Below are positions 19,186 to 63,710 of a stretch of DNA of 64,000 nt, piece after piece. The position numbers and the translations under genes were made by a program. The notes beneath the pieces were generated by a model. The model was not told where the DNA came from and did not search any database. It was given only the letters and a program-made list of their open reading frames with translations. Positions within the stretch are counted from its first letter, which is position 1. Every line of letters begins with the position of its first letter. Origin of the DNA: Stylophora pistillata (taxonomy: Eukaryota); NCBI RefSeq assembly GCF_002571385.2, contig NW_019217836.1, forward strand, positions 388,882-452,881, written 5' to 3'.

Positions 19186-19242
19186 GGGATTTTCCCGCTG
19201 AATGTTTTTCTCCCATTCTTACATACTTTCACTTTCACTTTC
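19186..19242 (+). promoter_or_regulatory. Putative NF-kB site (GGGATTTTCC, 19186-19195) and tandem IRF element (ACTTTCACTTTCACTTTC, 19225-19242) just upstream of the DED-SAMD9-like ATG
   Basis: Exact match to GGGRNWYYCC. The reverse complement of the second site is GAAAGTGAAAGTGAAAGT, three IRF half-sites at 6-bp spacing. Both lie within 81 bp of ATG 19267. Confidence 0.55.
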
Positions 19243-19266
19243 TGCATCGGCCATTTTTCATTGGCC

Positions 19267-19552
19267 ATGGATTGCAAATGTAAAGAACGTTTTCGACTTA
19301 AACTGCCCGATATTGCTTCAAAGTTAAGCACCGAAAACCTAGAAAAGTTGAAGTTTATTTTTGAAATCCCGCAAGGAGAAGCGGAGAAGATATCAAACGC
19401 AGAAGATCTGTTCCAGTTACTAGAGCATGAGCTTAAAATCGCACCACATCGTCTGGATTTCTTAATGAATGGCCTCGATAAATCTGGAAGGAAGGATCTT
19501 GCTGCCGAACTGAAGAATTTCATAGGTGATTGTCGCTGCGAAGGAGTAAAAA
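19267..19552 (+). CDS. Exon 1: death effector domain (DED)-like
   Basis: FRLKLPDIASKLSTENLEKLKFIFEIPQGEAEKISNAEDLFQLLEHELKIAPHRLDFLMNGLDKSGRKDLAAEL fits the DED pattern (L..LKF, DLF..LE, RxDL). GTAAGC donor at 19553. Confidence 0.82.
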
Positions 19553-22236
19553 GTAAGCCACGAAAGCCGCTAATAAATATTTATTCTTGACTCATAATTT
19601 TCACTCTTAGTGTAGTGAATCAATTTATCCAAGTCGGTTTTGTACCGTTTGTCCAACAGGATTTCATGCTTAAATGTTGTTAACGAAGCCTCGTATTTAC
19701 TTGCTGTATTGACCTACCTTGTTGGTAAATATGTTCTGGCGGGAATCAATTTCATGTAAAAGAAAATAAATCATATTTTGGGAAACATCCTTTCCTAGCC
19801 CTCGTGTTCCAAACAAAGAGAGTGACCGGGCACAGGATCTCGTACACTAACGCTTTTTCGTGAAACGGTTGAATTAAAATAAACGGTTTAACGGATAATT
19901 AACGGGTAGTAAGAGTGTTTAAACGGTTTGCATATCCATTTCAACGGATAGTCCAAAGCGTTCAACGGTAGAGAAGAGTCCAAAACAATTTTGCATATGC
20001 AACTTTCTTTCGCTCATGTTTCATCTAGCGTTCGATTTCGTAAAGTAATTTGTAATTATAGCTTTTATAAAGCCATTTTCGTTTCCTTTCAATCTATGGA
20101 AATAAAAGATGAGAAACCCGATAGCTACCGATTCGGTAAATAATTTTGCCGTACACGTCTATCGAAATAAATTTGCATAAGCATGAAAACAAATCTCGCT
20201 CTTGTCTGTTTTCGTAAAGTAATGCGAGCTCTCGTGTCTCAATATCTGGTTGAGAATTAATATTCTTCTAATCGAAGACCTTCTCATACCAGAGATTTGC
20301 AAACAGTAAGTTGTAACATCAGCTCGATCGAAGCGTGATTGATTTTCAACGGATGCTTCTTGGGACTGCATGTTTTATACCGTTTTTTTTTAAACGGATA
20401 GGTTAACCGTTTAAACGTTTTGTCGAAAACGTTAAACGGATGAGCAAAGCGTTTAAACGGATGAAGAAAGCATTTAAACGCTTTGATGATCCGTTTTAAA
20501 CGGATAATAAACGGATAGTAAACGGATTATTTCGTTAAACGGTAAAGCGTTAGTGCACGAAATCCTGTGCTCAGTCACATTATTTAATGATGGTGGGATG
20601 GCGGGGTGGCCGGTAGGGTTGAAGGAGTGGGTCCACGGTGACAAAACAAGAGTAAGAAGTCAACAAAATGACGAAGAAAAGGAATGCCTGACAATTACTG
20701 CATGATCATCAGCCACTCGTTGTTGGCTACGAAATGTGATGCTTTTAATTGTAAGCCAAATAGATTTTGATTTACCCTTGTCTAATAAAGTTAGAAGCAA
20801 GAAGAATATTGGCTTTGGGATCATGCACATGTAGGGTGTGGATCAATTTATATAGCTTCAACATTTCTCCTCCCATGGAACCCACTGGCATTAACAGCCG
20901 TCTGTGCCCATGGAGGGAGTAGCGAGTTTGACAAAGGCCTTTCTGAGGGGTGGGAAATTTGAACCTTGCCTGGGTGGAATGAGGAATTGGAACAAGAAGA
21001 CTGTCAAATCTTCCCAGGGGAATACTCATGTTTCATATTTTGATATTGAGAGTTTAAAGGTAAACTGAGTTTACTTTTGTGAGCTAATGGCTAATGTGAG
21101 CTGTGCTCACAATTTTTGAAGTGTTTGCCCCCTGAACATTGCAGTAGTGTAACTCCTTTTTCGATCAATCACATGACTAATGTTAACCCCTGCCATAGAC
21201 AATGCTATGAACTCATGTTTGATTTATGTGGCCAGCTACCTTGGCTACCTTTTAAATGAAAGACTAAATTTTGCAGTGTAAGCATTTTAGCTGATCTTTG
21301 TTGTGATTTTTTTATTTTTATTTTATTATTTACAGCTGATGATGGAAGGGGTACATCTGCATCTGGTTCTAGTGAATCAAGTGCCACTTTGGTAAGTTTT
21401 AATTTTGCTTGGTGTCTTAAAAATTAGGGATATCAGGTGAATTGAATTTTCCACAATTACAAAGGATCTTAAAGGATCCTGAAATATCTTTATGAGGACA
21501 TTTGAGGAACCTTAGTTGAGGATCCTCATGAAGATCTTTGAAAAAAACTTCAAGGATCTTCAAAATTCATGGTAAGATTTTCACAAATCTTTCATTTTCT
21601 TGCTAAGATCTTCAAGGATCTTTCATTTCCTGCCATTAAGATCTTTAAGGATCTTGAAGGATATTCAAAGATCTTGTCCAGAATTTGGAGGATCCTTTAA
21701 GATCTTTGAAAGTCCTCATGGAACTTCAAACTTCTTATTAAGCTCTTCAAGGGTCTTTCATTTTCTTTCCAAGATCTCCAAGGATCTTTCATTTTCTTGC
21801 TCAGATCTTCGAGGATCTTATTTTATATTCCTGCCCATGATCAATACTCTTTTTATGATCTCATCTGCTCTTACCCCAGATCTTTGAGGATAATTGTCAC
21901 AATTCCCATTAAGATATCTCCATTGTTCTTGTCAAGATTTTAGAATATTCAAAGTTCTTGCTTATATCTTTGTGTTATTCGAAATTCGATCTTCCCAATA
22001 TCTTAATTCTTCAGATCTTTAATAAACTTGTTAAGACCTCTTTGGTTCTTTCAAAATCTATTTCAATCTTTGGAGAACATTTAAGATGTTGCAAGAGAAA
22101 CTCAAGGATTTTGCTAACAATAGTTGAGGATTTTCGATAAATATTCTGAATAATAATAATCAGCCTAGACATATACAAATTGTGGAATTACATTTTTTAT
22201 TGCAACGACCAAAAGTTATCTGTATGAACAAAAGGT

Positions 22237-22301
<65 letters not shown>

Positions 22302-61580: not shown

Positions 61581-61679
61581 TTCTTAGAAATCAACACTTG
61601 CGCAAACAAGTCTTGCTAAAAATACATTTCCGAGAAATGTTTGTGACATTCAAATGAAAAGTAAAGACTTTTCGGTTTC
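61581..61679 (-). promoter_or_regulatory. Putative GAS sites (TTCTTAGAA 61581-61589, TTCCGAGAA 61628-61636) and ISRE core (TTTCGGTTTC 61670-61679) upstream of the E2-like gene
   Basis: Matches to TTCNNNGAA and GAAANNGAAA within 190 bp of the ATG. Confidence 0.45.
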
Positions 61680-62308
61680 TTGACGTGCGGATACAAGGAT
61701 TCTTACGGTACAGCTGTTGCGTCGAATGAGTTAAAAGCTTCCAGTTTTATTTCCCGTGTTTCATAAACTACGAAATTGGCAAGAAACAAACTAATCGCCT
61801 TTCTCTCTAAGTAATGATTTGAATTTGAGATAAGAAAAAAATATGTTAGTGATGATTAGGAAAAAAACAATGGACAGAATTCGAATTGCATAAAAGTTTT
61901 TATCACCCTGAACAATGGCATAAAAGCGATCTTTAAACGTCGGCTGTGCCTTTCATGTTTCTTAATCAATAGAACGAGCTACTTTATACAGTGCAGCACT
62001 CTATGACTTAAACAAAGCACGAACCTAACAATTTTAGTAATATTAGCCTTACACCCACTGGTCTCGGTAACGTCTTCCATTCCCCCTCTTCTTTTTTTTT
62101 TTTTTTTTTTTTTTTTTGCAGCTGCGGTGATAAAATCTTTACACAAAGAGGTCAGCCGTTCCGAATAATTTAGAAAAGTGGTGATATTCATCATCAAAAT
62201 TTTGTTCGTGAAAAATTTGCACTCTTTTTGAAATGCTTTGTTCTGATGCGCCTTCTTGAATGATGATGGCAAACGAGTTATCTGGCTTATAATGGGTTGT
62301 ACGTTTTC

Positions 62309-63283
62309 TTACTCCAGCGAAGATTCGAGATCATCCGCCTTCTTCCTCAAGTAAGATGCTGCCTTACACCCTTTCTTTTTTATCAGATCTCTGATCTTGA
62401 AGGCTAAATCAACTGCATCCAATGCAACAAAAACGGCGCTGACTCCAATAATGACAGTTCCAGCGGCCTTTGAAGCCAATTTCGAGCCTGTGCTTCCAAT
62501 CTTTCCAGCGGTGCTGGCGCCTGTTTTCAGACCAGTTGCCCCCTCTTTTGTGGCTCCTTGTAAAGCTCTAGATGTGATGTCGACTAACGATCCAGTTGCG
62601 GTTTCTACAGCTGTTATGACTGCTCTCCCAGCGCCGGCCTTGATAGCTATCTCGGATGCCGTTTTCACTGTTGCTTCCGTAAGGATATTCAAGATAATTT
62701 CCGCATTTATTCCTAAGCTTACAAGGACACTCTGAACTAGCTTAACGACAATATGATTCTGACCAAATAAAGCCACAGCTAGCTGAAAGAGAAAAGCCAG
62801 GTGTGCTTTATCTTTGTTTTGTTTCCATTCATTAACTTGTTCCTTAACTTTCCTCCTCAATTGATCGGCAATTTGCAAAGCTTTCTCGGCTTTTCGTATT
62901 TGTTTAGAGTTGACAACAGCCTCGGCGGTCGCTGTGCTTAAACCTGTGCCAGCAGCAGCTGCTCCAAGCGAAATCCCTGCCATCAGCAAAGGGGTAGCAG
63001 CGCCTGCGGTCAAAAACGTTGCGATTCCCCCTCCAATAGTCAGCGCACCTCCCAGAATACCCACACTGTTTCCAATCGCAGATGCGATTCGACAATCGCG
63101 CCATACTTTATCCAGATGATCTGCTGCTTCATTTAAACAAATGATCGCCTCTAGTTTGGCGTGGTTCATTTCCCTTACTTCCTCGGTGAAAGCTTTAAGT
63201 TCCGCCTCGAGCTGTTGCTCAATAGCCGTGGACTTGCTCCATTCGATCACCTGCCATTCGTCATTCAGATAAGACGTATCCAT
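62309..63283 (-). CDS. APOL-like: Apolipoprotein L family protein, 324 aa, intronless CDS
   Basis: LNEAADHLDKVWRDCRIASAIGNSVGILGGALTIGG...TAGAATPLLMAGISLGAAAAGTGLSTATAE forms the APOL hydrophobic hairpin. The C-terminus is VSAVFVALDAVDL...AASYLRKKADDLE. Confidence 0.85.
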   Translation of the reverse strand: MDTSYLNDEWQVIEWSKSTAIEQQLEAELKAFTEEVREMNHAKLEAIICLNEAADHLDKVWRDCRIASAIGNSVGILGGALTIGGGIATFLTAGAATPLLMAGISLGAAAAGTGLSTATAEAVVNSKQIRKAEKALQIADQLRRKVKEQVNEWKQNKDKAHLAFLFQLAVALFGQNHIVVKLVQSVLVSLGINAEIILNILTEATVKTASEIAIKAGAGRAVITAVETATGSLVDITSRALQGATKEGATGLKTGASTAGKIGSTGSKLASKAAGTVIIGVSAVFVALDAVDLAFKIRDLIKKKGCKAASYLRKKADDLESSLE

Positions 63284-63699
63284 TCTTGATAGATTTTTTT
63301 CTTGGGTTTCGAAATTGGAATAATTTCTTTTGTGGGAGTAACATGTACCCGGGTGTCGATGTCAACGTTTGTTACTACACTTAACTTCACTAAAATGGGA
63401 TCAAAAAGTGTTGGGTTAACAATTATTTCAGGAGCAATGATTTATTGTTGAGTAATTCCGGAGCAAGACGAAACTGCAAGATAGAAAGGAAGTATTTAAT
63501 AGAAACGCCGACGCATGCTCGACCCACAAAAGCTATTAATGGAGAATCTAAGAGAGCAATCCAATTGAATTCTCGTTTGGAGTTTACTCAGAATAATAAT
63601 TTGTTTTTCTTAAGTAAACGGGCGAAGCCTTACTGCTTTAGTAATAAATCACTTTTCGAATTTAGTATACAGATGAGCAATTTTAAACGTATTACGATG

Positions 63700-63710
63700 G
63701 AAACTGAAAG
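63700..63710 (+). promoter_or_regulatory. ISRE-like motif GAAACTGAAAG upstream of APOL-like gene
   Basis: Matches GAAANNGAAA(G), about 420 bp 5' of the ATG. A single site, so it could be chance. Confidence 0.3.

Follow-up and report, generated by a model that had tools for sequence, protein, structure and literature searches.

Three linked coral genes with IRF-type promoter motifs, one of them for an E2-fold protein of probable bacterial-type affinity

In the stony coral Stylophora pistillata, a window of 64,000 nucleotides raises the question of whether three neighbouring genes, related to SAMD9, to E2 conjugation enzymes and to apolipoprotein L (ApoL), are switched on together in infection, and whether they would then act as one pathway or independently. 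The preliminary description saw at positions 19186-63710 three consecutive genes separated by transposon debris, and this has been borne out: the trio is intact, and its identities are confirmed by Pfam matches, database models, RNA joints and predicted fold. The SAMD9-like gene (forward strand) lies tail to tail with the E2-fold and ApoL genes (both reverse), there are three separate promoters, and frames of at least 60 aa in the spacer 48318-61047 hold LTR, non-LTR and SINE-like debris only. The genes and the spacer are laid out as follows:

19267..48317, forward strand: SAMD9-like gene (database models P0121/P0213, RNA joints, profile match to human SAMD9 structures)
19267..19552, forward strand: its exon 1, death effector domain (Pfam PF01335, E 4e-16; exon end 19552 in RNA contigs)
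28720..35778, forward strand: its TPR-encoding exons
43830..48317, forward strand: its last exon, with GT4-conflict glycosyltransferase and SAMD9 core
48318..61047, no strand: spacer, made up of 3' UTRs and transposon debris (from frames of 60 aa or more)
near 52214 and 56373: SINE-like copies in the spacer
53702-54919: gag/integrase remnants in the spacer
56583-57635: reverse-transcriptase remnant in the spacer
60775..60807, reverse strand: 33-bp element 3' of the E2 gene (blastn, 88-91% identity in 5 of 8 compared orthologue loci)
61048..61491, reverse strand: E2-like gene, 147 aa, intronless, bacterial-type (UBC fold, invariant Cys103)
62309..63283, reverse strand: apolipoprotein L gene, 324 aa, intronless (Pfam PF05461, hydrophobic stretches, RNA contig cover)

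A single gene accounts for 29 of the 44.5 kb, since database model P0121 (2157 aa) aligns over 19267-48314, one exon after another, and the GT..AG joints linking its exons are present in RNA contigs. The RNA evidence consists of assembled contigs (24 runs; 7 different runs compared with the locus). The encoded protein, of about 2157-2182 aa, is built as DED-TPR-low complexity-GT4-Sir2-like-P-loop-helical-OB, with the GT4-conflict domain at about 43857-44972 (Pfam E 8e-69) and the STAND-like core also within the frame 43599-48317; its TPR exons are the origin of the database misname TOM70. Compared with solved human SAMD9 structures, a profile matched with a whole-sequence E of 9e-18 in three collinear stretches, the Sir2-like and OB ones being individually weak. 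The core of human SAMD9/SAMD9L is given in PMC5445408 as AlbA, Sir2-like, STAND-like NTPase, TPR and OB. Like it, the coral protein has Sir2-like, STAND-like P-loop, helical and OB regions in collinear order, and its P-loop reads G.GGTT, without lysine in either protein. Unlike it, the coral protein has neither SAM nor an AlbA nuclease match, and carries a DED, N-terminal TPRs and a GT4-conflict glycosyltransferase, the GT4 taking the position of AlbA. No AlbA_2 Pfam match was found in the window protein or in its 45 close relatives and, given this absence of the nuclease domain, the protein is classed as a SAMD9-like variant only. The earlier SAMD9-like label thus fits the ordered core, but not the places where vertebrate SAMD9 has AlbA and SAM, and the gene can be viewed as a variant of SAMD9 with a conflict-type glycosyltransferase as its putative effector.

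The Nematostella orthologue, LOC5506860, is 42% identical and has the DED-GT4-core build in common. It is induced about tenfold by cGAMP (log2FC of 3.29 for polyps and of 3.04 for embryos) according to PMC8713801, so that the immune induction proposed for the whole cluster finds support in one orthologue, that of the SAMD9-like gene. ApoL does not occur by name in the supplements of PMC8713801, nor are SAMD9 or apolipoproteins mentioned in the texts of PMC13319465, PMC12530282 and the cGLR preprint.

Further evidence on regulation comes from the promoters. IRF-type motifs near the gene starts, already noticed in the preliminary description, are present in all three genes (GAAANNGAAA, 25-417 bp upstream of each ATG), and the coral genome contains 5 IRF domains. 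The promoter features are:

19186..19195, forward strand: NF-kB-like site of the SAMD9-like gene (GGGATTTTCC), 72 bp ahead of the ATG (pattern scan)
19227..19242, reverse strand: tandem IRF-type element of the SAMD9-like gene (GAAAGTGAAAGTGAAA), 25-40 bp ahead of the ATG
61670..61679, reverse strand: IRF-type motif of the E2 gene (GAAACCGAAA), 179 bp ahead of the ATG
63700..63710, forward strand: IRF-type motif of the ApoL gene (GAAACTGAAAG), 417 bp ahead of the ATG

Within the window, GAAAGTGAAAGTGAAA is the sole triple GAAA-NN repeat; GGGATTTTCC is one of four NF-kB-like sites, and two further GAAACTGAAA copies lie downstream of the E2 gene, at 60158 and 60947. It is the position of the motifs, not their number in the window, that exceeds chance: three motifs each less than 450 bp from an ATG would be expected with a probability of about 0.002, by a post hoc calculation. 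A window-wide excess (19 versus 8.1 in shuffles) was rejected, as it equals the genomic background: other G000 stretches have 99 copies over 355 kb, from which about 17-18 would be expected in the window. A tighter version of the motif, with 4 occurrences in the window and 3 of those at promoters, was picked after seeing the data and is not counted as evidence. Among non-redundant coral E2-family genes, the motif lies upstream of 20 of 38 versus downstream of 8 of 40 (p 0.004; 2.5 in shuffles), leaving 18 of the 38 promoters without it, while ApoL paralogues carry it at background rate (3/13).

Lack of linkage across species, together with lack of correlated immune induction, had been named as a ground for giving up the cluster. 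Linked pairs were found in Orbicella, Oculina and other contigs, a linkage that may be ordinary coral microsynteny. Orbicella LOC110045022 and LOC110045025 share a scaffold, the linked Oculina orthologues carry the locus tags G007374 and G007379, and two further loci show ApoL then E2 on one strand (L081) and E2-ApoL-E2 (L080). Most linkage counts equate contigs by size, not by DNA read: on this basis, 9 of 30 non-self SAMD9-like contigs and 3 of 12 ApoL contigs recur among E2 contigs, and one contig (311,623) would carry all three families. None of the 61 metagenome loci compared extended to a SAMD9-like gene.

These data bear on a rather unlikely, though not negligible, alternative, namely that the trio reflects ordinary inherited gene order, to which closeness adds nothing, and that each member may be an immune gene under a separate promoter. 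Corals have many immune genes and well-conserved gene order, and the tail-to-tail arrangement would fit. So would the facts that on no other contig of the coral genome do members of even two of these families occur together, and that locus L077 has a close E2 orthologue and 9.8 kb of upstream sequence but no ApoL. This explanation does not readily account for an IRF-type motif near the start of each gene (probability about 0.002, post hoc), nor for the history of the window ApoL, whose lineage is split from the main ApoL tandem array of the genome, on contig C312, and has been kept beside the window E2 clade in several corals. We somewhat favour three linked genes with an IRF-type motif each, likely co-induced by STING-IRF and acting as independent effectors, with the E2 working in trans. 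The linked pairs and the interferon-type promoter motifs together make it likely that the trio is switched on together in infection, and the locus is likely an IRF-inducible neighbourhood of three independent effectors, as a prediction. It would then offer a conserved set of targets on which IRF-type regulation can be tested in an animal that lacks interferon.

The ApoL protein matches Pfam PF05461 (E 1e-20), has three hydrophobic stretches and is covered by RNA contigs. The coral thus resembles vertebrate apolipoproteins L in Pfam domain, hydrophobic helices and tandem array (C312), lysis and induction being predictions from its sequence. ApoL and E2 share a strand with a spacing of 0.8 kb, and one RNA run spans both nearly unbroken. 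Together with a model on record (P0265, or PFX30239, 469 aa), this could suggest that they are two exons of a single fusion gene, which is very improbable: an RNA contig (58787-62078) crosses the supposed intron unspliced and no ApoL-E2 joint is among the 15 joints listed of 24, so that the fusion model is not supported. Moreover, model P0267 is the 324-aa ApoL by itself, and the orthologues are distinct proteins of 147-148 and 320-331 aa. In run X21, SAMD9-like exons are covered and ApoL is not, and in run X13, ApoL/E2 words are present and the SAMD9-like 5' exons are not; absent cover in contigs carries no weight in either case, and neither do depths or contig ends.

The E2-like protein (61048-61491) has no Pfam UBC/UQ_con match and is recognised by its predicted structure, a UBC fold with a pLDDT of 95. 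Its tied top fold matches (Z 10.3) include BubB and a CBASS E2, with rmsd of 3.1 and 3.7 over 113 and 129 aligned residues, respectively. Cys103 is conserved in every one of 48 diverse rows of the family and is probably catalytic, as its position suggests. Structure alignments give 9-20% identity with solved eukaryotic E2s (9-13% for UbcH7), compared with 40% identity to a plasmid protein of the cyanobacterium Acaryochloris. A phmmer search against the PDB gave no match, the best PDB match of the E2 profile (E 0.004) covers the N-terminal half only, and orthology to UBE2L-type E2s (UBE2L6/UBE2L3 clade) was not recovered. The preliminary description had likened this gene to the ISG15-conjugating E2, a comparison that does not survive these identities and the bacterial JAB-E2-E1 operons described below; judged on sequence, the window E2 is not of ISG15 type. 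It would share with the vertebrate ISG15 system (UBA7, UBE2L6, USP18) a likely inducible conjugation, with IRF-type motifs, but it differs in the divergent E2, the ThiF-like E1 and the lack of ISG15.

In an Atlas search, the E2 fell in cnidarian clusters, one of them with E2-CBASS on 32% of its members. The E2 profile gave two weak partial matches in 401 genomes of one phylum, the family not being found there, and no match in phage records. A quick tree (72 rows, of which 60 carry no taxon; representative rows trimmed to 200 aa) groups the linked E2s and the window gene in one clade (support 99) and places the named coral rows on one side (92), with no readable direction of transfer.

Elsewhere in the coral genome, E2 paralogues adjoin intronless ThiF-type E1 genes, JAB proteases and small peptide ORFs: contig C112 has E1, E2 and JAB homologues all together, C332 has E2 and E1, and C626 has E2 and a degenerate JAB. 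The E2 also adjoins a JAB or degenerate JAB in 16 of the 61 metagenome loci, while no E1, JAB or peptide was found in the window locus or the 8 loci of its closest E2 orthologues. PADLOC models assign the coral E1 to E1-E2 (E 1e-31), the JAB to JAB (E 2e-16) and the E2 to E2 (E 1e-4), all below curated NCBIfam cut-offs. On the best reading, the window E2 is a member of a bacterial-type conjugation system detached from its partners, and the adjoining E1s and proteases make an anti-phage-style protein-tagging system in an animal likely. The one GTDB match to a coral E1, on a 1.5-kb MAG contig (75% identical over 40 residues), is probably host DNA and was discarded.

In bacteria, the E2 family occurs in JAB-E2-E1 operons, once ahead of a CBASS cyclase (Bradyrhizobium, JAB-E2-E1-cyclase-SAVED nuclease), and as a JAB-E2 pair in Acaryochloris. 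The coral homologues of E1, JAB and E2 recall CBASS type II (Cap2 E1-E2, Cap3 JAB, short-form E2), and the same three families precede the cyclase and SAVED nuclease in Bradyrhizobium. Unlike CBASS type II, the coral genes are separate and intronless, some of them arranged head to head, and are scattered over several contigs, in an animal genome with IRF-type motifs. No CD-NTase was recognised among the single-frame ORFs of the stretches read, in which spliced cGLR genes could be missed. By the logic of CBASS type II, the natural cargo in the one complete bacterial operon would be the cyclase and not a peptide, which speaks against a peptide cargo. Bil and Bub, for their part, are bacterial ubiquitin-like conjugation systems with a stand-alone E2, a ThiF-type E1, a peptidase and a beta-grasp modifier. 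The coral shares the first three, and BubB is among the top fold matches, but no beta-grasp ubiquitin-like modifier was recognised, the candidate cargo being peptide ORFs of 55-125 aa. These predicted, uncalled ORFs have the core F[DN]..TG.L...D.....(G)FF, with Gly ahead of FF in 6 of 8 and without it in 2, and gave no Pfam match (one scanned) and no Atlas match.

Under the favoured reading of independent effectors, the SAMD9-like protein would sense through its P-loop/TPR/OB core and signal through its DED and GT4 enzyme, not as a tRNA nuclease, and ApoL would damage membranes. The window E2 would likely work in trans, its bacterial-type E1, JAB and peptide partners being encoded on other contigs. 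The JAB protease would trim the small peptide at its conserved (G)FF end, and the ThiF-type E1 would adenylate its new C-terminus. Apart from two CxxC pairs, no cysteine is common to the coral E1s, so that the peptide may pass from E1 straight to Cys103 of the E2, and then to pathogen or host targets. That the trio is instead one coupled pathway, in which the SAMD9-like sensor triggers the E2 and the E2 modifies or licenses ApoL for membrane lysis, appears improbable: the conserved linkage and the ApoL/E2 spacing (0.8 kb, one strand, near-continuous RNA run) would agree with it, but the locus is without E1, JAB or modifier, the partners of the E2 lie elsewhere by gene context, and the SAMD9-like protein has effector domains of its own (DED, GT4).

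More tentatively, stony corals may have a complete bacterial-type tagging system, kin to CBASS Cap2/Cap3 and Bil/Bub and wired to IRF/STING, in which JAB-trimmed non-ubiquitin peptides, an E1 without catalytic cysteine and an E2 family would tag pathogen or host proteins. If true, cnidarians would possess an independent ISGylation counterpart of their own that uses a modifier of a new kind. The chief point is the evidence for E1-E2-JAB machinery, as known from bacterial anti-phage systems, in an animal genome; comparative genomics of prokaryotic ubiquitin systems may already have noted the coral module, of which, as of the cluster, no description was found in titles and abstract starts of the literature, subscription papers being outside this scope. 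The candidate, which matched no known family, is possibly a new peptide modifier, and the E1, E2, JAB and peptide parts, small and intronless, are open to in vitro reconstitution. The N-terminus of the Bradyrhizobium E1, for which no further plasmid relative was found and which the coral profile did not recover, resembles the peptide ORFs by eye.

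The main interest of the trio of genes in the window, within the 398-Mb genome of this animal, lies in its E2, which belongs, as a detached member, to a conjugation system of bacterial type in an animal; a SAMD9 variant armed with a glycosyltransferase adds further interest. The window features and the related coral clusters are as follows.

19267, plus strand: start of the DED (Pfam) of the SAMD9-like gene (19267-48317, 2157 aa)
43599-48317, plus strand: 1572-codon frame of the same gene, with GT4-conflict and weak STAND matches (Pfam)
61048-61491, minus strand: E2, 147 aa, UBC domain by predicted fold
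62309-63283, minus strand: ApoL (Pfam)
Contig C112, 290000-313000 (loci L053-L055): E2, four JABs and E1 within 17 kb
Contig C332, 83300-87100 (L058-L059): E2 and E1
Contig C626, 86500-98200 (L049-L050): three E2s and a degenerate JAB

The E2 is predicted to adopt a UBC fold (pLDDT 95) and its Cys103 is invariant in 48 of 48 aligned rows. It had been taken for a counterpart of the ISG15-conjugating E2, an identity that does not hold: it is 9-20% identical to solved eukaryotic E2s, against 40% over 99% of its length for an Acaryochloris plasmid protein. Plasmid matches are rare (3 records among 72,556), and include two Bradyrhizobium records at 28%; the family as a whole counts 492 representatives among 1.84 billion proteins. 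The Bradyrhizobium E2 (profile E 5e-27) lies in an operon with the layout of CBASS type II, in the order JAB, E2, E1, CD-NTase (split over two frames), SAVED nuclease and TIR protein. This plasmid operon occupies L139:4975-11345; its E2 is not recognised by PADLOC or NCBIfam, and its E1 has an extra N-terminal peptide. In Acaryochloris, a JAB directly adjoins the E2, and the E1 (45% by tblastn, 42% aligned) is found 87 kb away, past insertion elements. Some members of the family have either a long tail rich in proline or E2 domains in tandem (protein models P0315, P0317, P0318, P0319 and P0309).

Paralogues of the window E2, themselves intronless, adjoin intronless ThiF-type E1 and JAB genes, with additional JABs on contigs C293 and C2626. 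Because frames for GPCR, T-box, ankyrin and transporter proteins occur as well on the large ones among these contigs (6-713 kb), and because the JAB-E2 pairing recurs in 16 of 61 metagenome loci, the E1-E2-JAB module is coral DNA. In most coral JABs, ETGG and H-x-H-x8-S-x2-D are intact and spaced as in the bacterial relatives, as read by eye, a regular expression with canonical spacing having given no match. Besides two peptide ORFs, the JAB array at C293:146400-173000 (L147-L149) has a frame for a protein kinase and a 474-aa frame of repeats that looks RWD/E2-like; neither an E1 nor an E2 belonging to this family was found in it. A piece of a 1.5-kb bacterial MAG contig (L137) is 75% identical to the coral E1 and is probably host contamination.

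Eight short ORFs, seven on C112, C332 and C293 and one in locus L111, all adjoin E1, E2 or JAB genes and are candidates for the cargo of this system. Their alignment shows F, G, L, D and F to be invariant and the sequences to part beyond (G)FF, a pattern that, at the sequence level, suits a JAB-trimmed precursor; one lacks a start codon. The Bradyrhizobium E1 N-terminus holds, by eye only, a look-alike ending in MF right before the part aligning with the coral E1. A JAB would trim the candidate precursor at (G)FF. Since four E1s have only two CxxC pairs in common, we infer that the peptide would pass straight from the E1 adenylate to the E2 cysteine. Coral cGLRs would be an alternative cargo to these peptides.

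The database model P0121 (2157 aa), whose name TOM70 is a misnomer due to its TPRs, aligns over the entire SAMD9-like span. Together with GT..AG joints from exon 2 through the TPR exons (RNA contigs, three runs), a single contig of run X5 that extends from the exon of the DED as far as 33658, and an X1 contig of 2553 nt found with the same length and depth at both 33479 and 44001, this indicates that the stretch from DED to core is one gene. A profile from 18 orthologues matched human SAMD9 structures at E 9e-18; the Sir2-like, P-loop and OB stretches are collinear with those of human SAMD9, whereas AlbA and SAM were not found in the coral protein. Orthologues (42-86%) extend to Exaiptasia and Nematostella (46 of 47 matches). 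Tandem paralogues of different architecture, with lysine-rich N-termini, occur in L158-L163 (C309, C381) and L155-L156 (C19). An inverted repeat of 139 bp (97%; 36144-36282 and 38503-38641) duplicates the 3' portion of a coding exon, and two RNA runs suggest an exon shorter than in the database model, starting near 38503. At 19486, within the DED exon, 4 bases are missing from an X1 contig that has 10 further differences; it is an allele or a paralogue with a shifted frame.

The three consecutive genes of the preliminary description, separated only by transposon debris, are borne out by Pfam, model mapping, RNA joints, the E2 fold and the content of the spacer: the 12.7 kb from the SAMD9-like stop to the E2 hold UTR and transposon debris. 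An X1 RNA run links 52625 directly to 58787, which suggests that a 6.2-kb retroelement block is missing from that individual.

Pairs of the families are linked across corals. ApoL and E2 lie at a distance of five locus tags in Oculina, SAMD9-like and E2 genes lie three LOC numbers apart on one Orbicella scaffold, and ApoL adjoins E2 in 2 of 61 metagenome loci, none of which (most <7 kb) reached a SAMD9-like gene. Among contigs of at least 20 kb, 9 of 30 with SAMD9-like genes and 3 of 12 with ApoL are shared with the E2 list, one being only 55 kb and one carrying all three families, contig identity being taken from equal lengths. The window E2 is the best match of each of the 12 linked E2s tested, and those of them placed in the tree make up its clade. 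The orthologue locus L077, with E2 and no ApoL, is a counter-example for ApoL linkage. Beyond the window, no contig of the S. pistillata genome brings the families together: E2-like genes lie on C626, C112 and C332, ApoL mostly on C312, and SAMD9-like genes on C19, C309 and C381.

The motifs reported near the start of all three genes are indeed present: GAAANNGAAA precedes each ATG by 25-417 bp, as a triple repeat next to an NF-kB-like site for the SAMD9-like gene. The motif and the site follow the IRF-type and NF-kB consensus forms. The motif total over the window equals the genomic background, without excess, and the E2 family is a stronger test: the motif stands before 43 of 87 starts (each with 300 bp or more of DNA upstream, from 67 loci), compared with about 0.10 for random windows. 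Once look-alikes were removed, it occurred in 20 of 38 upstream versus 8 of 40 downstream regions (p 0.004; 2.5 in 200 shuffles), leaving 18 of 38 promoters without it; its position and strand vary between paralogues. ApoL paralogues were at background (3 of 13); the ApoL orthologue in L080 has the motif, and that in L081, with only 287 bp of upstream DNA, does not. Five IRF domains were found in the genome.

As for induction, the supplement of PMC8713801 lists the Nematostella orthologue of the SAMD9-like gene, LOC5506860, as increased by 2'3'-cGAMP in polyps (log2FC 3.29, padj 2e-33) and control embryos (log2FC 3.04, padj 7e-24), and a S. pistillata cGAMP response partly common to Nematostella was previously published, according to PMC13319465; further context is available (PMC12530282, cGLR preprint). 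Of the proposed cluster of three defence genes, what fell is the ISG15-type E2; what stands is the neighbourhood, which is real and conserved and which we are inclined to regard as a group of three likely IRF-inducible effectors.

A 33-bp element 3' of the E2 (60775-60807) is kept in 5 of 8 orthologue loci, with two more GAAACTGAAA motifs nearby (60158 and 60947). At least 15 ApoL genes or fragments, several broken, stand in tandem at C312:71000-246000 (L008-L030), and an intact single-exon rhodopsin-family GPCR (5208-6500, minus strand) lies 12.8 kb upstream of the cluster.
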